Assembly (NCBI GenBank): GCA_964016885.1 | Contig: OZ024740.1 | Location: 403,310,001 to 403,374,000 of the forward strand | Direction of reading: 5' to 3' | From: Eledone cirrhosa | Taxonomy: Eukaryota | Length of the DNA: 64,000 nt | Part shown: in pieces, positions 1,211 to 59,579 of the stretch | How the letters are laid out: each line of letters opens with the position of its first letter | Numbering within the stretch: the first letter of the stretch is position 1 | Position numbers and translations under genes: made by a program | Notes under the pieces: model-generated | Seen by the model: only the letters and a program-made list of their open reading frames with translations | What the model was told of the DNA's origin: nothing | Database searches by the model: none

Positions 1211-1809
1211 AAAATCACTGACGAAGGACTATTTTTATCATATGTAACACATGTGCAACCACGCAGTATTCTTCTTTCTTCTCATGTTTTTTATATATAT
1301 TTACCTCGGCTGCGTTTGTCTGTTTCTCTCTTACTGCTTCCCCACTCTCTCTGTTTCTCTCACCTTCTTTCGCACCCTCTGTCAGTTACACTTTCTCTCG
1401 ACTGACCTCTTCCTCACACTTCCACTCACTCACTCTCTGTTTCTCCCCTTCTCACTTCCTCCGTTTGGCTTGTGTGGGTCTCTTCTTGCTCACATCTCAC
1501 ACACATCAACACGGTCTGTACCTCTCTCACTCATGAAATCCACCCGGCTTATGCTGACCGGACAACCATGTTGCTTGTTTATTTTCCTATCTTCGGTTTG
1601 CTTTTATCCTTCTATGTTGTTTACTTGTCCCCCTCGCCTTACGCGAATTCTGGTCCCAATAACTTTTTTTAGTTATTGCTCACACCAACCTGAGGTATCT
1701 GATTTTTAATGCGATAAAATACCAATGATGGTTGGAAAATCACTGACGAAGGACTATTTTTATCATATGTAACCCATGTGCAAACCACGCAGTATTCTTC
1801 TTTCTTCTC

Positions 1810-25046: not shown

Positions 25047-26962
25047 ATGACGACAACGACGACGAAACAGGTGTGCGGGAAATACGAAAACCCATTTCAT
25101 TCGTCTGACGTCAGGAATAATAGCAGTAGCAGCCGTAATAACAACAGCAACAGTGACAATGAAAACAACGGTAGCAGCCGCAACAGCATCAACAGCAGCA
25201 TAAACAACAACAGCATTAGCAGTAGCAACAACAACAACCACAGCAACAGCGGCGGCGGCAGTAGTCGTAGTACCTGCAGCAACAACAAAAGTAACAGCAG
25301 CTCTGACGACAACAACAACAACAGCAGCAAAGAAAAACCAATCTCGTTTGCAGGTATCGCGAAGAACCTGGAAACCATCCTCATAACAAATGAGGAATTA
25401 GAGGAAGCGAAGAAGATGGTGACAAAAACTGGACACCGAGCAATCTGCAAAGCAGCGGAAAAATGTTTCGAAACCCAACAGCACTGTACGGTCACGTACC
25501 GTACAGTAAGTACAAAATCCCGTAGGTTTGAAAGAGCCACAGAGGCTCAAATACAAAAAGCCTTGGGGTCTGTGTGGCAGCGGAAAACGCACATCACCCG
25601 AGGCAAGAAATATGCCACCGTAGACGTACTTTTTGCCACACCCCAGGAGGCAAAGGCCCAATCCTTAGTGACCCTAAGGAGCGAGGAAATGGTGTTGGTA
25701 CCCTCCTACTGCGGGCAAAAAATTGTGAGGGTCAAACTGATCCACGCCCCCCCCCCCCCCCCCGGATGGCTCCTTCTTGGCTGGCCGCGTCTGTCCTCGT
25801 CGGAATCGAGGACAAAACAACTGTACTGCAAGTACAGAAAAAAGTAAGAGAAGATTGGGTCGGCACCTCCATTGAGATGTTAAACCAAACCAACCAGGAG
25901 TGCATCGAAGCTATCCCGGATGTGATAGACTTCGATAACGGCACTCAACTGCCCATAAGTGTTGAGGGCAAACGCCCGAAATGCTTTCGCTGTGGATCGA
26001 AGACTCACCTCAGGGCCTTCTGCAACGAGAAGACCCTGAGAAAGGAGAAAAACCCCCTCCTTCCGAAACCGGCTCCACGGCTACCAGCAACAGCACAAGC
26101 GGCAACCAGGAACGATAGGTCCGTGGCACCCATACCCACGCCACGGAAATCAAAAACAGCAGCAGCAGTGGAAGTATTAACAACAACAACAGCAATACCA
26201 AATGCAGCTGCAACAGAGACTCCAGTGCAAACATCACCAACAACAACAAGTGAAAGAGTGGAGCTGGTACCCCTCCCCGACCTCACAGAATCAGACATGG
26301 AGTGTGAGGTGGGAGAGGGATGGCAAAAGGTCGTAAGAAAGCACAAACGCAGAAGCAGCGCATCGTCGCCTTTGAAAAGGGAGGAAAGAAATGAAAAAAG
26401 GGTAAAGTCTACTACAAAGAGACTCACAGCAGCAACACCACCAACACCATCACCACCCACACTAGCACCACCATCACCACCGGCGACAACCCCACCGCCA
26501 ACAACACCTTCAACATCACCACCACAAGCACCAACATCGCAAACACAACAACAAAACACACACACCCAGCAACAATGACAAGAAAATAGCAGAACCACAC
26601 CCCACCCCCAGAAAAACAAATGCACGGCAATAAATACACACAACAAGAAACTAATGACTTACATAATTGAACACACAGACATTTCACAACACGACTACAT
26701 AATACCAGCACCAATCAAAACGCCAACTAACATAAGACTGCTAAAAATAGCACAGAAACAATACACAAACATTAAAACGAAATTCCCCAACGCAGTTGGT
26801 GATTTCAGAGACCTAGGAGGAACTATCAACCGAAGAGTATATTCGGACATACTCATAGAAGAGCCGACGACAAGCCGAAGGGACGATTCAACGGTCCCTT
26901 CACCAGACGATCAAGGGAAAAGGGATGGAAAAACCATCCCTCCTCTACAAAAAGTAATGTAA
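25047..26962 (+). pseudogene. LINE ORF1 (gag-like, CCHC knuckle CFRCGSKTHLRAFC) with a frameshift in poly-C at ~25750-25763 and an in-frame TGA at 26576-26578
   Basis: ORF 25017-25847 joins 25574-26578 across the C run; 26654-26962 is in the same frame with no other stop between. Confidence 0.8.
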
Positions 26963-26997
26963 GTGGTCTTTCCCATCTTTTCCACTCTATTTTAAAC

Positions 26998-29900
26998 ATG
27001 ACCTCACTCAGAATAGGCAGCATAAATGCGCATGGCTTGGGGTCGTCATGGAAGCAGGGTCACCTGCTCAACGACCTCAGGTCACTAAACATAGATGTAG
27101 TGGCCATCAGCGAGACCAGAATCTCCGAAGCACGGGCCTTCACACCGATCTTCGGCGGCTACGATGTGTACGCATCTCCCAGCCGTCCTGGATCGGGGGG
27201 AGGAGTTGCTGTGCTTTTTCGGAGAGGTTTGGATCTCGCCATACGGGCCATCTTCCTGGACCCAGAGGGTAAGTTGGTGGTGCTGGATGTGACCAGCGGA
27301 GACGGGCAAGCTTTCAGGCTAGTGGCCGTCTATGCCCCGACAGGAGCAGGGCGGCCTGATTTCTTCCGGCGTCTGGAGACCTTTCTTGGAACGTCCCGCT
27401 CTTTAGTGTTAGTGGGCGACTGGAACGGGATCTTAGATGCACGCTGGGACTGTGTGGGATTAGCGGATAGGGGTGGAGGGTGCAAGAGCCTCACCAACCT
27501 GCTCAGGCGTTTTGAACTGTCTGACAGGTACCCATTGGATTTCCCGAATGTGCCGATGTGGACTTGGACAAATCGCATAGGGTCATCCAGATCATATCTA
27601 GATAGAGTATTTTGTAGGGAAATAGATAAGTCTAGCATAGGCTGTCCACAATTCAAGATAGTCAGCTACACGGACCACAAATTCGTGATCTGTGTGCTTG
27701 ACTTAGATAGGCTTCATACACGAGGACCCGGCTACTGGAAGCTAAACGCGTCCTTACCAGCGCGCAAGGCCTACAGAGACCGGATTAGCGAACTAGTTAA
27801 GCGGGCGTTGACGGGGGCCATCGTCAACAACAAGTGGTGGTTTGCTCTGAAAAGAGCGATTAGAATAGAATCCATTAGGTTTAATAAGGCTTTAGCAATA
27901 GAGAAAAATAGAGCAGAGGGAGAACTAGTTAGACAATTAGACGAGGCGCTTAGCGAAGGCATTGCGACCGACGTGCTTGCGGCGAAATTGGCCCTTGACC
28001 AATTCTTCAATGCAAAGCACGAAGGCTGCGTTGTCAGAGCAAGGGTGCGTGCTCTCAGACACGAGGGGACGAAAGCCGTTCAATGGGCCCGAGTGGCGGA
28101 GGCGCGTCGTGGCAACAAAGCCACGATCCGGTCTTTGGTGGACCACGACGGGCGCATGCTACTCGATCCCGGGCAAATGTGTGAAGCTTTTCAGCGATAC
28201 TTCGCTCAGCTGTTCGGGGGCAGCGGTGGGCCGGGTCGAGGGATGGACTTTAGTGTCTACCTCGACGGACTGCCGCGGCTCTCGGCCACTGAGGCGAAGT
28301 GTTGCGAAAAGCCGATAACAGCCGCTGAAGTAAGGGAGGCAATGACTGGCTGCACAAGGGGTAAATCGCCTGGTTTGGATGGTCTACCCTATGAACTTTA
28401 CGTACAGATGCCAGACTTGTTCGGAGGCCTCTTGGCGGACGTCTACTGCAACTGGCAACAGAACGGGAGAATTCCCAGTTCTGTGAACCGAGGAGCGGTG
28501 GCACTGCTGAGAAAGGATCCGAACAAGGGGGATAACATAGATAATTTCCGGCCTATAACTCTGCTAAACACAGAGTTCAAGATTTTGGCCAAGGTGCTAG
28601 CAAAGAGGTTGGCGCTTGTCGTTGGTGGTCTGGTGGGAGAGGCGCAGACATGCGCCATTCCCGACAGATCCATCCACGACAACCTCCACCTCATGCGATA
28701 CATCGTAGAGAGGGTAGCTAGGGAACATGGCACGGGTGGGTCCTTGATCAATTTAGATCAGTCGAAAGCTTTCGATAGGGTCGACCATCGTTACCTAGCG
28801 GCAGTCCTGAGGGCGGCTGGCTTTGGGCCCGTCTTCAGAGGCTGGATCGCTGCCATGCACAGCGACATCTGCTCTGTGGTGAGAGTGAACGGTCACCTGT
28901 CGGAACCGTTCAACATCATGCGCTCGGTCCGCCAAGGATGTCCCCTCTCGTCCCTCTTGTATGTATTGACTCTCGAGCCATTACTGCACAAACTGGAGAC
29001 GTTGAGGGGCGTCCCGCGCGAACTAGGATGCGGAAGATCCGTGTCAGCATATGCGGACGATGTCACCGTAGTGGTGTCGAACGCCAAACACATCGAGGCG
29101 ATCGGCACTGCACTAAGAGAATACGAAGCGGTGACAGGAGCAATGATCAACCAGGAAAAGCCAGTGGGCCTGCAGCTCGGCAGCTGGAGAGGCAGGTCCA
29201 TGCCGTCCAACAGCGTCGTCGGACGCTGGACGGACGGACCGGTTAAATTGCTAGGGGTCTGGTTCGGTCCGGACCTCCAGACAGACAAAAACTGGGACGA
29301 GGTGACAAGCAGGGTGGCTTCTCTCACCCAGAAATGGGCGGAGAGGAAGCTATCGCTGAAAGGTCGAGCGGAGTTGGCTAACGCGTACATCGCGTCTGTC
29401 ATATGCTACCGCCTGACTGTCGTACCTTGTCCTAAGCCTCGACTGACTGCGCTGGAGCGTTTGCTCTTTCGCTTTTTGTGGAAGGGACGCGCTCCGATGG
29501 TCAGGCGGTCCATCTGTTGTCAACACCCGCTACGTGGAGGGCTGGGCATGCCGTGGCTGATGATGCGCAGGCACGCGCTCAGGCTACGACATCTCCACCT
29601 CTTCCTCGACGGTGATCAGGTGTGGTCGCCGTTTGCTAGACACGTATTTCCCCAGCTCGTTTCCTTGACGGAGCTGCAGTCCTGGGTCAAGCGAAGACCG
29701 AGAGGGAGCGCCTGGAGACTGGAATGTCTTCAGGCGCTCACAGCCCTCGACTAATCGGGCAATGTGATCGGTGGAAACTCCACCTCGGCGTTCTATAGAG
29801 GATTAGTGGAGGGGAAGAGCGACGACGTACTTGGGGAAACTCTAGGCGTCGACGAAAATCAACTAGCCAATCTCTTCGGAAGAACTTTCGGGCCAGGGCC

Positions 29901-30417
29901 TATGGACAACTTCCAGAAATCTCTGGCCTGGCAGTGCTACCGAGGAGCCTTGCCAGTTCGGGATAAACTCTACAGGCATGGAGGTGCCGTCAGCCGGACA
30001 TGTCCGAGATGCGCGCAGGGCGACGAAACCGTCCTGCACGCACTCGTCCAGTGTCCGAAAATTGCTGACTTGTGGGTTTATGTCGAACACCTGCTGTCGC
30101 GTGTAGGATGGATCTGGCTATCATCTGAGTCCTTCGTGAGGATTGCCCCGCCCTCCTCCTTTAGCCGGGAAGGGCAGGCAGTTTTTATCTGTCTGGTGGC
30201 CATGGCGAAAGAGATAGTATGGTGGACACGTTTGAAAGGGCTGAAGACGAGCACTTACCTCTTCGGTGATGCTCTGATTGACTTTTTCAAATTTCATTTG
30301 AAAAGGAAAATCAGAGTAGAGAGGGAAGTGCTCTCTTCCCAGCATTTTGTTGAAAGATGGGTGAGAGAAGCAAGAATGGCCCGAGTGAATGGGCCTACTC
30401 TGAGTATATATCTGTAA
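26998..30417 (+). pseudogene. LINE ORF2: AP endonuclease + reverse transcriptase + C-terminal Cys-rich domain; single premature TAA at 29752-29754
   Basis: SINAHGL, SETR, VYAP, GDWN, YLDRV, TDH (APE); KSPGLDG, NFRPITLLN, DQSKAFDRV, RQGCPLS, YADD (RT); 29764-30417 continues in the same frame. Confidence 0.95.
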
Positions 30418-41008: not shown

Positions 41009-42747
41009 AACTGTAGTATGTTTATAAGGAATACAACTGTAGTATATCTATAAGGAATACAACTGTAGTATATCTATAAGGAATACAACTGTAGTATATC
41101 TATAAGGAATACAACTGTAGTATGTTTATAAGGAATACAACTGTAGTATGTTTATAAGGAATACAACTGTAGTATATCTATAAGGAATACAACTGTAGTA
41201 TATCTATAAGGAATACAACTGTAGTATATCTATAAGGAATACAACTGTAGTATGTTTATAAGGAATACAACTGTAGTATATCTATAAGGAATACAACTGT
41301 AGTATGTTTATAAGGAATACAACTGTAGTATATCTATAAGGAATACAACTGTAGTATGTTTATAAGGAATACAACTGTAGTATATCTATAAGGAATGCAA
41401 CTGTAGTATGTTTATAAGGAATACAACTGTAGTATGTTTATAAGGAATACAACTGTAGTATATCTATAAGGAATACAACTGTAGTATATCTATAAGGAAT
41501 ACAACTGTAGTATGTTTATAAGGAATACAACTGTAGTATATTTATAAGGAATACAACTGTAGTATATCTATAAGGAATACAACTGTAGTATATCTATAAG
41601 GAATACAACTGTAGTATGTTTATAAGGAATACAACTGTAGTATATCTATAAGGAATACAACTGTAGTATGTTTATAAGGAATACAACTGTAGTATATCTA
41701 TAAGGAATACAACTGTAGTATATCTATAAGGAATACAACTGTAGTATATCTATAAGGAATACAACTGTAGTATGTTTATAAGGAATACAACTGTAGTATA
41801 TCTATAAGGAATACAACTGTAGTATATCTATAAGGAATACAACTGTAGTATATCTATAAGGAATACAACTGTAGTATGTTTATAAGGAATACAACTGTAG
41901 TATATCTATAAGGAATACAACTGTAGTATGTTTATAAGGAATACAACTGTAGTATGTTTATAAGGAATACAACTGTAGTATATCTATAAGGAATACAACT
42001 GTAGTATATCTATAAGGAATACAACTGTAGTATGTTTATAAGGAATACAACTGTAGTATATCTATAAGGAATACAACTGTAGTATATCTATAAGGAATAC
42101 AACTGTAGTATATCTATAAGGAATACAACTATAGTATATCTATAAGGAATACAACTGTAGTATATCTATAAGGAATACAACTGTAGTATACCTATAAGGA
42201 ATACAACTGTAGTATGTTTATAAGGAATACAACTGTAGTATATCTATAAGGAATACAACTGTAGTATATCTATAAGGAATACAACTGTAGTATGTTTATA
42301 AGGAATACAACTGTAGTATATCTATAAGGAATACAACTGTAGTATATCTATAAGGAATACAACTGTAGTATATCTATAAGGAATACAACTGTAGTATGTT
42401 TATAAGGAATACAACTGTAGTATATCTATAAGGAATACAACTGTAGTATATCTATAAGGAATACAACTGTAGTATATCTATAAGGAATACAACTGTAGTA
42501 TGTTTATAAGGAATACAACTGTAGTATATCTATAAGGAATACAACTGTAGTATATCTATAAGGAATACAACTGTAGTATGTTTATAAGGAATACAACTGT
42601 AGTATATCTATAAGGAATACAACTGTAGTATGTTTATAAGGAATACAACTTTAATAGGAATACAACTGTAGTATGTTTATAAGGAATACAACTGTAGTAT
42701 GTTTATAAGGAATACAACTGTAGTATGTTTATAAGGAATACAACTGT
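41009..42747. repeat. 26-bp minisatellite, ~66 copies, two interspersed variants
   Basis: ggaatacaactgtagtat[atc|gtt]tataa. Confidence 0.95.
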
Positions 42748-44845: not shown

Positions 44846-45459
44846 TTTTATGTTATGTTTCATAACAATAACAATAGCAGGAGAGTGAGAAATAGTAATA
44901 ATGGTAATAATATTAACGATAGACAGAACAACAACAACAACCACAATAATAATAATAATAGAAACATTAACTACAGACACAGCAGCAGCGACCACAGTAG
45001 TAATAACGGTAACAATACGAATAACAACAACAACCACAGTGGTAATAATAGTAATAGAAATAATACATGTAGCAACATTAATGATAGAGACAACAAAAAC
45101 AAGAAACATAATGTAACAACCACAATGGCAGAAATAACAGTAACAACAACAATAACGGTGAAGAAAACAACAACAATACATCTAACAATCACAGCAACAA
45201 TACATCTAGCAATCATAACAACAATACATCTAACAATACATCTAGCAATCATAAAAATAATAATAATGCTAATGAGAGGAACAACATCAACTACCATAAT
45301 AACAATAATAGCAACACACACAACTACCCACAGATAAGTCTGGTAGGATGTCAATAGACAGCATGCCGAACTACATCAAGCTATGCAACCCACATCACTA
45401 ACACGAGCGAAATTGCACAGCAAATACATGATGGGAAAGAGAAAATCCTCAACGCTCAC

Positions 45460-47371
45460 ATGATGATGTGGACCGACATCCTAAAGCCAAGCAGACGCAC
45501 TACCAACAACTTCCAGGCGTCTAACAATGGCATACCACCCTTGTATGGGCTCCGCAAAGACCACAAGACAGTCGACGACCCGACAACAGGACCACCAACA
45601 AGACCCGTATGCAGAGCAAATATAGCTAGCAACTACAGGATCTCCTACTTCCTCTCAATGGTTATACGCTCCATAATCAAGATGTCCCCAGATGTATGTG
45701 ACAGTACAGAGGACCTCCTCAGCAGAATCAGTGAGTGCAACAAAAACAGGAACCTATCCAACTGCATAATCGGCAGTATGGATGTGGTATCACTGTACCC
45801 ATCCATTAACATTGATTTGGCTGTGGAAAAATGTGTGGAGATGATCATTGAGAGTGAGGTGGAGTTCTGCGACGTCGACACAGATGAACTGGGCCTCCTA
45901 CTTAGACTTACCTACGACACTGACTACCTAGACAGCCATGACCTTAGACGTTTCTACCCCAGTAGACCCATAAGAGGTAGACCCCCCACCATAACCTCAA
46001 TGGCTAAAAAGACTCCCATGGGAAGGTGGATTGGGTGGATCAAAGCTATACGGACCCCCCAAAACAATGATCAGGTAAGAAAAATGGTCGCACATGCAAT
46101 AGGGGCTAGTATCAAAACTACCCTAAAGGGCCACATATTCAAGTTCAACGAGAAGATCTACACCCAAAATGAGGGAGCAGCCATTGGCGTCAGCATAGCT
46201 GGTGACGTTGTCAACCTTTTCATGGTATGGTGGGAAAGGAGTCTTAAAGATCTCCTTAATGAGAGCTCCATAGACCTTATCATGTACTCTCGTTACGTAG
46301 ATGATATCAATATAGTTATAAGAACATCCCCACACGAGAGCACTAACAAGTTTGATTTAGAACGTAGCACAAGGGAAAGCATCCAGAGTATAACTGTAAC
46401 TATCGACTACCCTTCCAAACACCCTAACAATAGACTACCTGTGTTAGAGACGGGACTTTGGATTAATACTATAGACGAGAGAGCCCAAATTCTCCACTCA
46501 CACTATGCTAAACCCATGGCCTCCAAATACCTGATACTCAAAAACTCAGCAATGTCCAGTAGTGCTAAGTTTAATATTCTGATCGCAGACTTGGTACGAA
46601 TGATGAAGAACGTGTCCCACATGTGCGACCTAACAGAAATGGAAAGACACATCCAACACTTCATCAACCGCATGCAGTTCTCTGGCTACAACCAAAGAGA
46701 CAGAATCAGAATATACGAAGGAGCCACGGAGAAGTATAAGACCCTCATAGAACTGGACATGAAAGGAATTTGCCCATTATACAGGAGCAAATCATGGAAT
46801 AGCTTAGATAGGACTAGACATAAGATAGGGAAAGCCACCTCATCGTACGCAACCAGAGATACCAGAGTGTCATGTTTGTGGACGCTACCCCTGGAGGGAA
46901 ATTAGCTAACCAGTGTAGAAAGGCCCTGAGAAAGACCCACTTAAAGATTAAGGTGGTAGAAAAGCCAGGAACCACCATAAAATCCCTGATCAGCAAAACC
47001 TACCCTTTTAAGAAAACCCACTGTACTAATAGTAAATTTATCATATGTAAAGTAAACCCCCGGATAAACTGTAAAACTAGAAACGTAGTCTATAGCATAA
47101 GATGTACAGAGGGTACTTGCAGAAACATGACAACAACATACATAGGCGAGACAGCTCGTAGCATAGGTGAAAGGATAAACCAACACTGGGGGAACTAAAA
47201 GGACGAAAAAACGGTTCAGTACTATACGAACATGCCAGACAACAACACGACGGTAACATAGACAACATAGAAATTAGAATAATATCTAAAGATAGAAATG
47301 ACCCAGCAGATAGGCAAATCAGAGAGGCCAGTGAAATAGAACTTAGAAGGCCAAAGCTAAACAAAAAATGA
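45460..47371 (+). pseudogene. Penelope-like element ORF: reverse transcriptase + C-terminal GIY-YIG endonuclease, frameshifted
   Basis: PPLYGLRKDHK, PTRPVC, MDVVSLYPSI, FKFNEKIYTQNEGAAIG, RYVDD; then FVDATPGG, Cys-rich linker, VVYSIRC...YIGETARSIGERINQH. Confidence 0.9.
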
Positions 47372-47700
47372 ATGGAATAACAACAACACCCAAACAAACA
47401 ACACTGACCTAAGAGAAGTATAAATAAATAAATAAATAAATAGATAAATAAATAAATACATGCGGAAGCACAATAACAACAAACACATATAAACACACAC
47501 TAATAAAGATAGAATACATTAACCAATACACAGTCAACCAATCACGAACACACATCAAACAAAACATTATACACACACGCAAACGCATGCGCAAAGAAGA
47601 CAAAAAATAAAATAAAATAAAAATAAACAAATAAATAAATATATAAACAGACTAAATAAAGATGGCGTAGAAAATACAATGCAACGGGAGGAAACAATAG

Positions 47701-47745
47701 CACCACTGACGATGTTGCAGATGTGCAACGAAAGAATTTTGATAA
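47701..47745 (+). ncRNA. Decayed minimal hammerhead in the PLE 3' pseudo-LTR
   Basis: CTGACGA-t-gttgca-gatg-tgcaac-GAAA-gaattt; stem I poorly preserved. Confidence 0.6.
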
Positions 47746-47942
47746 ACTATATATATGTGTTTGTATCTATATTGTATCTGTATTTTTGACCGTTGGTCAG
47801 TCAATGGCAACATTGAGGACCGAATAAATTAAATTAACTGATATAAAAGACACAGAAGCGAAAAGCGAAAACCAACCAAACAGTGTGTTCTGTTATTAAT
47901 TGTGGCAATATTACACAAATATGACCCTCCCCAAGTATAACA

Positions 47943-48037: not shown

Positions 48038-48976
48038 GAAAAAGTGAGTCCTTCATCAGTGACCCTCCAACCGTCCTCGGCATTTCATCGCTTTAAGGGC
48101 CATATGCCTCAGGTTGGTGCGAACAACGGCTAAAAAAAGTCGTTGGGACACGTAAATAAAGGGGGACGCTAGAGTAACAACAAAAGGGTTTAAGCAACGG
48201 AAAGTGAGTAGAAATAGACAAGTCCCAGATCTCTATGAATATAAACTCTGTGAAATCGTGAACAAGAGACGAAAGACCATCGAACCTGGTAGAAATGTGA
48301 GCAAGGAAAGAATTTCGCCCAAGTTTGACGGGGGGGAAAAAGAGAGAGAGAGAGAAAGAAAAAGGAGAGAAGAGGAAGAAGAAGAAGAAGAAGAAGAAGA
48401 GGATAAGGTGGTCTGGTCTACGAATTCGGTAAACGCAAGTTTTGTGAAGTCGCAGACGAAAGAGAGAGAGAAAAAAATTTCATACCAGCTCGGTCAAGAC
48501 TGCGCGAGAAAAGAATTACACACAGGTCAAACTTGAAGGAGGAGGAGGAAAGAGGAGGAGGAGAGGTAGTGACAGAGAATGAGGGAGTGAAAGTTGAGGA
48601 GAGGGTAACAGAGAGGGAGACGGCTAGAAGTGGTAAAGATACAAGGAACGAAACAGACAGGCAGCATGGAAAAGTAATATGTGTAAATATGATGATAATA
48701 ATGGAGCTGCGGCGTTGCAAATGGGATACATATGAAAAAGTGAGTCCTTCATCAGTGACCCTCCAACCGTCCTCGGCATTTCATCGCTTTAAGGGCCATA
48801 TGCCTCAGGTTGGTGCGAACAACGGCTAAAAAAAGTCGTTGGGACACGTAAATAAAGGGGGACGCTAGAGTAACAACAAAAGGGTTTAAGCAACGGAAAG
48901 TGAGTAGAAATAGACAAGTCCCAGATCTCTATGAATATAAACTCTGTGAAATCGTGAACAAGAGACGAAAGACCAT
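48035..48976 (-). mobile_element. 1.35-unit tandem (696-bp period) of the permuted-hammerhead family, subfamily 2, next to (TA)n
   Basis: 48035-48280 appears identical to 48731-48976. Confidence 0.9.
48048..48149 (-). ncRNA. Permuted hammerhead/K-turn motif, copy D (core intact); copy E at 48744-48845
   Basis: Minus strand: gtcc-caacgac(t7)agccgttg-ttcgca-ccaacc-tga-ggcat-A-tggccct-taaagcgat-GAA-atgcc-gaggac-ggttgg-agggtca-CTGATGA-aggac. Confidence 0.7.
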
Positions 48977-57238: not shown

Positions 57239-57380
57239 AGAAATTATTTAGCCTGATAGTGGGGTTATGAACCCTCGGAGAAATGGAAAAAGATGAGTAT
57301 TGACGTACATGTACGTCAATACTCATCTTTTTCCATTTCTCCGAGGGTTCTTAACCCCACTATCAGGCTAAATAATTTCT
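57239..57380. repeat. 142-bp near-perfect palindrome ending at TA repeats
   Basis: Centre acgtaca|tgtacgt at 57309/57310. Confidence 0.9.
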
Positions 57381-57493
57381 ATATATATAAAACGAAGGAA
57401 GTGTGGTAAGGAACCAGATGGACCATAACACACCAGAGTACTCGAAACGGCTTGAGCTCCGCCGTCCGTCAGGGACTTGAACATTTTCCTATA

Positions 57494-57524
<31 letters not shown>

Positions 57525-57529
57525 TTTTC

Positions 57530-58300
57530 CTTTCTTCGGTTTGCTTTTATCCTTGTATGTTGTTTACTTGTCTTACTCGCTTTACGCGACTCACTTGTCT
57601 CAATAGCTTTTTTTAGTTATTGCTCGCACCAACCTGAGGTATATGATTTTTAATGCGATGAAATACCAAGGATGGTTGGCAAATCACTGTCGAGGGACTA
57701 ATTTTATAATTTGTAACCCATGTGCAACCACGCAGTATTCCTCTTTCTGCTCATGTTTTTTATACATATTTACCTCGGCTGCGTTTGTCTGTTTCTCTCT
57801 TTCTCTCTTACTGCTCCGCGTTCTCTCTGTTTCTCTCACCTTCTTTCGCCCCCTCTGTCAGTTACACTTTCTCTCGACTGACCTCTTCCTCGCACTTCCA
57901 CTCACTCACTCTCTGTTTCTCCCCTTCTCACTTCCTTCCGTTTCGTTGGTAGTGGGGTTCTTTCTTTCTTTCTCACATCTCACTCACGTCGGACGGTCTG
58001 TATTCTGAACGCTCATGAAATTCACCCAGCTTATGCTGACCAGATAACCATGTTGCTTGTTTTTTTTCCTATCTTCGGTTTGCTTTTATCCTTCTATGTT
58101 GTTTACTTGTCTCACTCGCTTTATGCGACTCACTTGTCCCAATAGCTTTTTTTAGTTATTGCTCGCACCAACCTGAGGTATATGATTTTTAATGCGATGA
58201 AATACCAATGATGGTTGGCAAATCACTGACGAGGGACTAATTTTATAATATGTAACCCATGTGCAACCACGCAGTATTCCTCTTTCTTCTCATGTTTTTT
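57530..58300 (+). mobile_element. 1.4-unit tandem (539-bp period) of the permuted-hammerhead family, subfamily 1
   Basis: 57530-57760 is repeated at 58070-58300; motif copy B at 57597-57698 (CUGUCGA) and copy C at 58136-58237 (intact). Confidence 0.9.
58136..58237 (+). ncRNA. Permuted hammerhead/K-turn motif, copy C (core intact)
   Basis: gtcc-caatagc(t7)agttattg-ctcgca-ccaacc-tga-ggtat-A-tgattt-ttaatgcgat-GAA-atacc-aatgat-ggttgg-c-aaatca-CTGACGA-gggac. Confidence 0.7.
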
Positions 58301-58545
58301 ATATATATATATACATACACACACATACATACATGTGTGTGTATGTTGTTGGACACTTTATAGGAAACTTAATTATAATTAACGTTAACATGGCCTTTTC
58401 TTTTTTCTTTCGCTGCACCATTTGCAGAAAGGAATCCAAGTTCTTGGTAGGCCTAAAAAGCCATGTTCGTGTCTCCCGTGTGTGAGAAAAATGTCAAGAG
58501 ATGGCAATTCTCGAAACCGAGATGCAGCCATTATATATATATAAG

Positions 58546-58735
58546 GGTGGTGGTTTGGCAGTATCGGTAGAGGTTCGGACGCCATACTTTACAGCATAGT
58601 TAGGCCCCTTTACGTTCTGAGTTCAAATCCCGCCAAGGTTAACTTTGCCTTTCATCCTTACGGGGTCGATAAAATAAAGTACCAGTAACGTACTGGGATA
58701 ATTACTGGCCTTGTGCCGAAAGTAGAAACAATTAT
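58546..58735 (+). mobile_element. tRNA-headed SINE
   Basis: Same family as 14716-14934. Confidence 0.9.
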
Positions 58736-58739
58736 ATAT

Positions 58740-59497
58740 CTATCTAATCTATCTAGGGCGGGTAAAATTCCCGAGATCCATGGACGAGTTCTCTCCAGCG
58801 GTCTCTGTCCCTCATTATCGCTGCCATGTCCTGCGTCTCCAACAGACCAGTGTCTGTCCTCAGGGCATCAACATACGTTAACCTTGGTCTTCCTCTTCTA
58901 GTGTGTCCATGTAGGGGCTCCCACAGGAGCACTGAGTGTAATGTCAACTCTGGATGTCGGTGAGCATGTCCAGCTAACCTCAGTCTCCTCTGTGTCACTT
59001 TTGAGCTGACTTTTGGGATGCTCCCATACAGCTCTGAGTTTTTCATCCTCAGTGTATACTGATTAATGTTCAGAGCCATCCTCAGCATTCTCGTGTAGCA
59101 CCCATCCACCATCTGAGTGAGTTTCTTGGTCAGTGTCCAAGTCTCAGACCCGTACAGCAGCACAGACTCCACTACAGCAATGAAGAGGCGGATTTTCAGG
59201 TCTTTACGAAGGTCCGACTTCCACACCGATCTCAAGCTATTTTGGTGACAAATACAGTGAAGGAGGCAGAGGATTTGATGCGGGAGGTTGAGACTGTGTC
59301 GATGAGTGTGGGGCTGAGAATGAATGAGACTAAAACAAAATATCTGATAGAGAATGTTGAGAAGCCAGAGGGGATCACTAATGTAGGCGGGAAGCCGCTA
59401 GAATTGGTTGAGGGCTTCCTGTATTTGGGAGCAAAGATTGGGAATACGGAAGATGATGTGGTTGAGAGGAAGAGCAAAGCCTGGGCGGCGTGCCACA
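58740..59497 (-). mobile_element. 5'-truncated, 5'-inverted RTE-clade LINE with 12-bp TSD
   Basis: Minus ORF LRSVWKS..KIRLF..VESVLLYGSETWTLT..RRLRLAGH; plus-strand segment ..GLRMNETKTK..FLYLG..AWAACH; TSD acaattatatat at 58728-58739 and 59495-59506; (TAGA)n tail. Confidence 0.9.
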
Positions 59498-59499
59498 AT

Positions 59500-59579
<80 letters not shown>

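Follow-up and report, generated by a model that had tools for sequence, protein, structure and literature searches.

A kink-turn in the extended stem III of a predicted type-SGC hammerhead ribozyme from an animal chromosomal repeat

The insertion and its surroundings

The window, by which is meant the whole stretch of 64,000 nucleotides analysed, includes at 57518..58300 (plus strand) an insertion of about 1.5 tandem units of a non-coding repeat of 539 bp with 43% GC, situated between (TA)n tracts. Inside the insertion, the 102 nt at 58136..58237 (plus strand) read as a predicted hammerhead ribozyme of type SGC, with a kink-turn (k-turn) in an extended stem III and with a four-way junction. 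A reading of the minus strand was rejected; it lacks a hammerhead core.

Several other features surround the insertion. A short interspersed element whose head resembles a tRNA occupies 58530-58740 and was present in many of the fetched loci; we take it to be a SINE. A fragment at 58750-59500 (minus strand) presumably represents the reverse transcriptase region of an RTE-type LINE, as judged by eye. At 41009-42747 a 26-bp unit is repeated 63 times, the copies being 95% alike. The GC-richer stretch at 26803-30414 (plus strand), with open frames of 983 and 220 aa, is probably an L1/Tx1-type LINE. At 45358-47900 (plus strand) there is a decayed Penelope-like element. Its 515-aa frame matches RVT_1 weakly (E 4e-5, below cut-off), later frames show motifs like those of GIY-YIG, and near 47706 it has a minimal core that resembles a type I hammerhead.

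The kink-turn loop and its copies in the window

Read from the sequence, CCAACC at 58168-58173 pairs with GGUUGG at 58213-58218 to form a 6-bp helix, P1, and GGUAU at 58177-58181 pairs with AUACC at 58202-58206 to form a stem III of 5 bp, the U16.1-A15.1 pair included. Between these helices lies an internal loop with UGA (58174-58176) opposite AAU (58207-58209) and GAU (58210-58212). In k-turn numbering the pairs are G.A at 1b.1n, A.G at 2b.2n, U.U at 3b.3n, G-C at 4b.4n and C-G at -1b.-1n, and the loop is AAU. The standard k-turn, in the available text of PMC5061560 and PMC4382518, consists of a canonical helix, a 3-nt bulge, the pairs G.A and A.G, and a second helix. Standard k-turns adopt a kinked shape of about 50 degrees and are bound by proteins of the L7Ae family. 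The loop matches this pattern in all five full copies in the window, and by its sequence it is a k-turn. The first-pass annotation had claimed that the loop separates the CCAACC/GGUUGG helix from stem III in five copies, which was borne out in all five, and its readings AAU-GA-U, AAG-GA-U and GAG-GA-C came out identical when the copies were read again.

The copies are named here by the start of helix P1. The 58168 copy (58136..58237, plus strand), the subject of this study, has the k-turn AAU-GA-U, and its upstream tandem neighbour, the 57629 copy (57597..57698, plus strand), has AAG-GA-U and a damaged core (CUGUCGA). In the 1685 copy (1653..1754, plus strand) the k-turn AAU-GA-U is intact while GAAA is damaged and reads AAAA. 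Two tandem copies on the minus strand belong to a second subfamily with the k-turn GAG-GA-C: the 48813 copy (48744..48845), in which 3b.3n is C.U and the core is intact, and the 48117 copy (48048..48149). A sixth copy at 1208-1292 is truncated and the k-turn motif is absent from it. As the catalytic cores of two of the five full copies (57629 and 1685) are damaged, five copies do not equal five working ribozymes; they are also paralogues of two subfamilies and their evidence is not independent.

When the letters of the 51-mer from 58168 to 58218 were shuffled, 28 of 20,000 shuffles satisfied a k-turn descriptor requiring 4-bp helices on both sides. RNAfold recovered both helices and the internal loop from the 51-mer (z -2.49), and one of 200 shuffles was equally stable.

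Architecture of the predicted ribozyme

The catalytic blocks follow each other in the order S-G-C: the cut-site strand at 58177-58188, GAAA at 58199-58202 and CUGACGA at 58226-58232, the two latter recognised by their sequence. The pairing described below was compared among 37 representatives, picked by eye for diversity out of 109 distinct matches.

The S block begins with the 5' strand of stem III (58177..58181, from G-1n to U16.1), which is the C helix of the k-turn; it is 96.8% paired and shows UA/CG and GC/AU switches. Residue 17 at 58182, placed by the hammerhead consensus and by the ends of inverted insertions, is A here and C in other subfamilies. The predicted cut falls between 58182 and 58183, after the triplet AUA, which is present in 25 of the representatives, AUC being present in 11. 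The rest of the block, UGAUUU at 58183..58188, forms stem I with AAAUCA at 58220..58225, with two-sided change in six of seven pairs and at least seven switches on the tree; also the C-block strand is assigned by covariation.

On the other side of the k-turn, the 5' strand of P1 (58168..58173), the NC-side helix, is 96.8% paired with its covarying partner at 58213..58218, and five of the six pairs show two-sided change, with at least 12 switches on the tree. The non-bulged strand of the k-turn comprises 3n U, 2n G and 1n A (58174..58176). The opposite strand starts with UACC of stem III (58203..58206, assigned by covariation, with C-1b at 58206) and continues through the bulge L1-L3, AAU (58207..58209), which takes 13 different triplets among the 37 copies and is always 3 nt long, to 1b G, 2b A and 3b U (58210..58212).

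Stem II is reduced to a single covarying pair between residue 10.1 at 58233 and residue 11.1 at 58198, which is paired in 33 of the 37 representatives (A-U 14, G.U 10, U-A 8, G-C 1, unpaired 4), and it opens into a predicted four-way junction of II, Pa, Pb and P0 with one unpaired base at the closure. The strand before the pair, GCGA, assigned by covariation together with residue 11.1 (U) at 58194..58198, joins UCGC upstream of P1 (58163..58166 with 58194-58197) in helix P0. The strand after it, GGAC (58234..58237, likewise covarying), joins GUCC at the 5' end (58136..58139) in helix Pa. Between them, Pb (58140..58161) is a hairpin of CAAUAGC and GUUAUUG with a U-rich loop, 90.5% paired and with two-sided change in four of eight pairs. 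The outer pair of Pa is G-C in 26 and A-U in eight of the 37 representatives, with one switch on the tree. Pa and P0 have the least support among the helices tested, and P0 is the weakest of all, its change from C-G to U-A in five of the 37 being one event of the CpG-decay type.

No helix connecting stems I and II at their distal sides was seen here in that form. Its role appears to fall to P0, Pa and P1, and the four-way junction would occupy the position that the I-II helix has in known SGC ribozymes. The first-pass annotation had described a permuted ribozyme in which a k-turn extends stem III, and this part of its account stands, but it had overlooked the helices found in place of most of stem II. 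A stem II of one pair is atypical for a hammerhead, and judged from sequence the activity of the ribozyme is not assured.

The family in the genome

The genome searched for cores comprised 3.0 Gb in 1,796 contigs and is rich in TA and TG repeats. The pattern GCGATGAAA-N22-30-CTGANGA had 12,131 matches (control 4). A wider pattern, which is blind to the k-turn and keeps the core letters, identified 16,215 S-G-C cores (control 1). All four G/A letters of the k-turn were in register in 14,882 of these 16,215 cores (91.8%), so that a large subfamily without the k-turn motif does not exist among them. The loss per site, about 2%, is close to the decay at other invariant sites, which are kept in 70-72 of 72 copies.

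These 72 copies come from a sample of 91 distinct copies at loci around matches of the GCGATGAAA pattern, of which 76 were intact upstream and 72 of those had the usual spacing of 23 nt between GAAA and CUGANGA. Both GA steps were kept in 68 of the 72, the four exceptions being three single substitutions and one deletion. Unlike the representatives, about half of which were taken with a pattern that demands GA/GA, the 72-copy sample and the genome counts are k-turn-blind and free of this circularity. The bulge was 3 nt long in all 37 representatives. The first-pass annotation had proposed that the conservation of GA/GA and of bulge length be checked among genomic copies, and had considered that a loop variable across the family would speak against a k-turn; neither GA/GA nor the bulge length proved variable in this way, and its identification of a standard k-turn, with a 3-nt bulge and GA/GA, agrees with a pattern that the family conserves.

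In one diverged copy, L345 (G000 C1:1,483,056), the sequences of stem I and Pa are different, G2n is missing and stem III is weak. This copy may be a product of decay or a member of an older subfamily with a non-standard kink.

Covariation and folding

Seven helices were tested on the 37 representatives. Altogether 90.9% of the cells were paired, while slid controls gave 30-44%, and 21 of the 37 base pairs in these helices showed two-sided change. On the tree of the representatives, two-sided switches numbered at least 12 in P1, seven in stem I, three each in stem III and Pb, two in stem II and one each in Pa and P0, the single compensatory event of P0 being the one of the CpG-decay type. The compensatory changes thus back stems I and III, P1, Pa, Pb and P0. 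The helices flanking the k-turn, each 96.8% paired, vary with compensation, and also the bulge varies: L1 changed nine times, L2 four, L3 three and 3b and 3n five times each. The GA/GA columns had no changes, a count that is partly circular with these representatives. Of the 88 other columns, only ten were unchanged.

RNAalifold recovered nothing beyond P1, stem III and the loop that separates them, and with RNAfold the second subfamily was no stabler than its shuffles (z -0.55); RNAfold cannot represent pseudoknotted helices.

The same data bear on the reading that the GA/GA loop is a product of chance or of hitch-hiking in a young repeat whose hammerhead is inactive. Copies within one subfamily are nearly identical and two of the five cores in the window are damaged, as such a reading would have it, but every helix shows compensation, all neighbours of GA/GA turn over across subfamilies, so few of the other columns are unchanged, and inverted insertions show a step at the predicted cut site (see below). 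We consider this reading very improbable. The k-turn is, by its sequence, real and under constraint.

Inverted insertions and the predicted cut site

Head-to-head inverted insertions were taken as marks of the end points of reverse transcription. Three zones were compared with equal gap windows of 0-30, the anchors differing in copy number: 51 inversions had both arms ending at most 30 nt upstream of GCGAU, the zone that holds the cut site, 34 fell just upstream of CUGANGA and four upstream of P0, before the cut site. A further 15 were found at gaps of 31-61. The inverted insertions thus drop about tenfold across the predicted cut site.

The arms were measured at 50 fetched junctions, made up of 35 of the 50 listed inversions with gaps of 0-30 and the 15 with gaps of 31-61; the other 15 of the 50 listed were, judged by eye, fold-backs at a TTTAAA palindrome and were left out. 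In 12 of the 50 junctions the longer arm reached the cut site and stopped there or a single base further on; it ended at each of the two preceding positions in one. The remaining ends included five at 13-14, none at 15-19, 12 at 20 or beyond and 19 at 8 or below; the script under-called a few arms beginning with a mismatch. The step in the inversion ends fits templates that start at the cut and is indirect evidence for the predicted cleavage. It could also come from stalling of the reverse transcriptase in folded RNA or from AT-rich microhomology.

Folding of the kink-turn with ions or with protein

The folding rules of k-turns allow the family to be compared with k-turns that fold in ions and with those that require protein. 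According to McPhee 2014 (PMC4382518), a Watson-Crick pair at 3b.3n blocks ion-induced folding and 3n=G or 3b=C permits it, while U4 k-turns prefer G-C or G-U at 3b.3n. In Ashraf 2017 (PMC5689011), C-G at -1 aids folding, U:U with G:C at 4b:4n still folds very poorly in ions alone, and U.U together with G-C is the pattern that requires L7Ae. Tertiary contacts can also fold a k-turn without protein, as described in a portion of PMC3651934.

Among the 72 copies, 3b.3n was U.U in 22, U.G in 17, C.U in nine, A.A in eight, A.G in seven, C.C in five, G.A in three and U.C in one; these are counts of related copies, with seven changes of state on the tree, and not of independent events. A Watson-Crick pair at 3b.3n was found in none. 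The permissive letters 3n=G or 3b=C were present in 38, -1b was C in 71 and -1n was G in 70. Since 3b.3n is never Watson-Crick, more than half of the copies are permissive and -1b.-1n is nearly always C-G, the family appears to lean towards protein-free folding, and dependence on a host protein, which the first-pass annotation had thought possible, is less likely across the family. The subfamily of the 58168 copy, with U.U and G-C, would lean towards needing help, which tertiary contacts could also supply. L2 was a purine in all 72 copies, and L3 was U in 56 and G in 14; with U so common at L3, binding of 15.5K is plausible.

These observations are relevant to a protein-gated ribozyme, in which the k-turn stays open until 15.5K/Snu13 (or L30e or SBP2) binds, and cutting and the formation of circles take place only in a host ribonucleoprotein, possibly reached by the box C/D assembly route. 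The 58168 copy, with CUGA and AUGAUGG, U.U and G-C, has the pattern given as requiring L7Ae in the accessible part of PMC5689011, and also the letters at L2 and L3 and the U.U pair in 20 of the 37 representatives agree with gating. Against it are the 38 of 72 copies with 3n=G or 3b=C, the absence of Watson-Crick 3b.3n from all 72, which is opposite to the bias of U4, the C-G pair at -1b.-1n, the G at L3 in 14 of 72, and the ability of tertiary contacts to fold such k-turns (PMC3651934, in the portion available). No Rfam family matched at its cut-off within the window, and the motif area gave eight weak matches far below it, the best C/D-box match scoring 25 bits against a cut-off of 65. Taken together, gating by a protein appears unlikely.

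In the 58168 copy, CUGA agrees with box D in four of four letters and AUGAUGG with box C in six of seven, the latter counted against what we take to be the box C consensus. The likeness to U4 presumably lay in the string CCAAUGA alone. Of the resemblance to a U4 5' stem-loop or a box C/D k-turn pointed out in the first-pass annotation, the box C/D-like letters of the 58168 copy are thus present, but the U4 side fails, the pairs G-C and G-U that U4 prefers at 3b.3n being found in none of the 72 copies. Neither is the element a box C/D snoRNA, as the D-like CUGA precedes the C-like AUGAUGG and U.U occurs in only 22 of 72 copies.

The kink-turn as a probable hinge

The favoured explanation, which we hold to be probable, is that the k-turn is a built-in hinge that lets the SGC hammerhead, with its predicted cut after 58182, fold as one molecule. 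Three helical paths would lead from the core to the outer junction: stem I (6-7 bp), stem II with P0 (1+4) and stem III through the k-turn to P1 (5+3+6). In a hammerhead, stem III leaves the core opposite stems I and II. Both strands at the far end of P1 would enter stem I and P0 through linkers of 0-1 nt. Unbent, P1 would end 14 stacked pairs (about 40 Å) beneath the core, on the same side as stem III, and the kink would return this end to a place beside stems I and II. Because the linkers are this short and the straight path would end on the wrong side, a sharp kink should be needed. The topology thus speaks for the earlier proposal that the kink bends the chain back, as the k-turn sits where the chain must bend to reach stem I and CUGANGA. 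Mg2+ together with contacts around the kink would bring about its folding in most subfamilies. A protein of the L7Ae family, such as 15.5K/Snu13, may stabilise the kink by binding to it, and the U.U subfamilies, among them that of the 58168 copy, are the most plausible candidates for this.

The bend would be unneeded if the ribozyme were assembled from two molecules or from neighbouring units, the C block of one joining the S and G blocks of the next, with the k-turn acting as a protein handle or as end protection. The copies are often tandem, and dimeric cutting is reported for minimal hammerheads of Penelope elements and of salamanders (PMC7229834; also Lunse 2017, by its title). In the family studied here, however, the spacing of 23 nt is kept in 72 of 76 intact copies and P1 stays at six pairs while its sequence turns over, which together fit a geometric constraint within one molecule, and no palindrome suited to dimer exchange was seen. 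Assembly from two units is accordingly quite improbable.

With a hinge in a single molecule, cleavage would release unit RNAs from tandem transcripts, by analogy with retrozymes. After the cut, pairing in stem III, P1, P0 and Pa, together with the k-turn, would keep the 3'-terminal piece of a unit in place, a state that should promote religation to circles. By the same analogy, the circles would be copied back into TA repeats by a Penelope-like element.

The carrier repeat and Penelope-like elements

Units in the genome measure about 445-545, 620-680 or 690-760 bp, are often tandem and share no ORF. At insertions in (TA)n, counted with overlapping loci, the 3' ends concentrate +40-59 and +90-109 from GAAA and the 5' ends are scattered. 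At G000 C2:54,547,000-54,566,400 (L031-L048), the second subfamily forms a tandem array of at least 18 units, each with a length of about 730 bp. As a non-coding, tandem repeat inserted in TA, the carrier resembles a retrozyme. Metazoan non-LTR retrozymes have type I hammerheads in units of 150-450 bp in the available text of PMC7229834, and type I hammerheads also in that of a second source, bioRxiv 10.64898/2026.07.22.740005. The carrier shares with them the non-coding tandem units, the low GC content (43%) and one hammerhead per unit, but its hammerhead is of the order type SGC and not of type I. By analogy it would work like a retrozyme and yet is outside the published definition.

Near some SGC copies there is a Penelope-like family, presumably Neptune-like, with open frames of 1,226-1,261 aa, and a TA target is common to both. 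It was rejected as the carrier: it has a minimal type I hammerhead of its own, and none of six full-length loci includes an SGC core. At the ORF ends of this family an SGC unit was present in one of 30 loci, behind a TA tract, so that the SGC repeat is not continuous with the RT/GIY-YIG ORF, as a pLTR would be, in the one Penelope-like family examined. As a mobiliser of the SGC repeat the family is possible. Near-identical Penelope-like copies with open frames of this length (L161-L166; G000 C2, C3, C4, C11) each have a minimal type I hammerhead in the pLTR; with at least 150 matches at 97-100% they have probably been active recently. Other ORFs upstream of SGC cores were considered as partners and rejected, being scattered and mostly behind microsatellites, and no autonomous partner was found in the loci examined. 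For Naiad elements, a preference for microsatellites and an absence of hammerheads, as judged with standard descriptors, are reported (bioRxiv 10.1101/2021.04.23.441226); a link to Naiad is only a lead.

Another TA-inserted repeat, found in the window at 1000-1180 and 57370-57490 and also at locus L113, includes GAAA, a hairpin of 5 bp and UC, a combination reminiscent of stem III in hammerheads, and no CUGANGA was seen near it. At L113 this repeat is fused directly to an SGC unit and replaces the 5' flank of helix Pa. Outside the genome, the SGC pattern had two matches in metagenomes, both without the helices on reading, and 81 (44 distinct) in viral contigs, none with all three helices paired. 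The element was also present in contigs of two sequencing runs of unrecorded kind, which are silent on its expression or ends.

Comparison with known systems

Type-SGC hammerheads and k-turns are each known kinds, and their union, the four-way junction and the setting in an animal chromosome were not found in print. A literature search of open papers found neither an earlier k-turn hammerhead nor an animal SGC hammerhead, and "kink" and "k-turn" have no occurrences in the text and text supplement of PMC10085705. As far as the search reached, this would be the first natural hammerhead with a k-turn, and it would also be the first non-circularly permuted hammerhead in animal chromosomes. A bolder form of the claim, that a retroelement family of more than 16,000 copies has the first natural hammerhead closed by a k-turn and switched by host 15.5K/Snu13, cuts and circularises RNA only in a snoRNP-like particle, and has similar permuted relatives that are invisible to type I-III descriptors and hide in Penelope-like clades reported without hammerheads, is doubtful. 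Type I-III descriptors and Rfam miss the SGC motif, and the numbers of hammerheads given for animals may have to be revisited, as may the view that certain Penelope-like clades are without them. The subfamilies also form a natural 3b.3n series (U.U, U.G, A.G, C.U, A.A) in which folding rules and any gating by 15.5K could be read as cleavage rate.

The work of Eckert et al. 2023 (PMC10085705) describes 583 SGC ribozymes from metatranscriptomes, with cleavage shown and none from the genome of a known organism. The family shares with HRIMA-1 and its variant the S-G-C order, the conserved CUGANGA, GAAA and UH, the crossing of stems I and III, and a short connection between stem I and the strand that precedes GAAA. 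In the known SGC ribozymes of that work stem II comprises several pairs and a helix connects stem I with stem II, whereas here stem II is one pair and opens into a predicted four-way junction. HRIMA-1 further has a fixed five-pair stem I and is confined to metatranscriptomes; here stem I varies and the ribozyme resides in an animal chromosomal repeat of more than 16,000 copies. A k-turn in an extended stem III is another difference. How stem III, whose far end lies a long way from the I-II contact, is linked to that contact is treated in the same work as an open geometric problem, and the proposed k-turn hinge would be a concrete answer.

The SAM-I riboswitch's k-turn and Kt-7 resemble the one described here in the 3-nt bulge, G.A/A.G, C-G at -1, a non-Watson-Crick 3b.3n that includes A.G, and the predicted architectural role. 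They differ from it in that the present k-turn lies within a predicted self-cleaving ribozyme, takes at least seven states at 3b.3n and mostly has G-C at 4b.4n. With the box C/D k-turn and the U4 5' stem-loop the 58168 copy has in common CUGA, AUGAUGG, U.U, G-C and the loop AAU. Unlike in box C/D RNAs, the D-like box comes before the C-like one, the boxes are not kept across subfamilies and there is no guide or snoRNA match; unlike in U4, G-C at 3b.3n was never found (0/72). Metazoan non-LTR retrozymes, in the available text of PMC7229834, have non-coding tandem units with one hammerhead each, a GC content under 45% and copy numbers in the thousands; they occur alongside Penelope-like elements and show tandem and inverted insertions, all as in the carrier repeat. 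The carrier differs from them in its type-SGC hammerhead within units of 445-760 bp.
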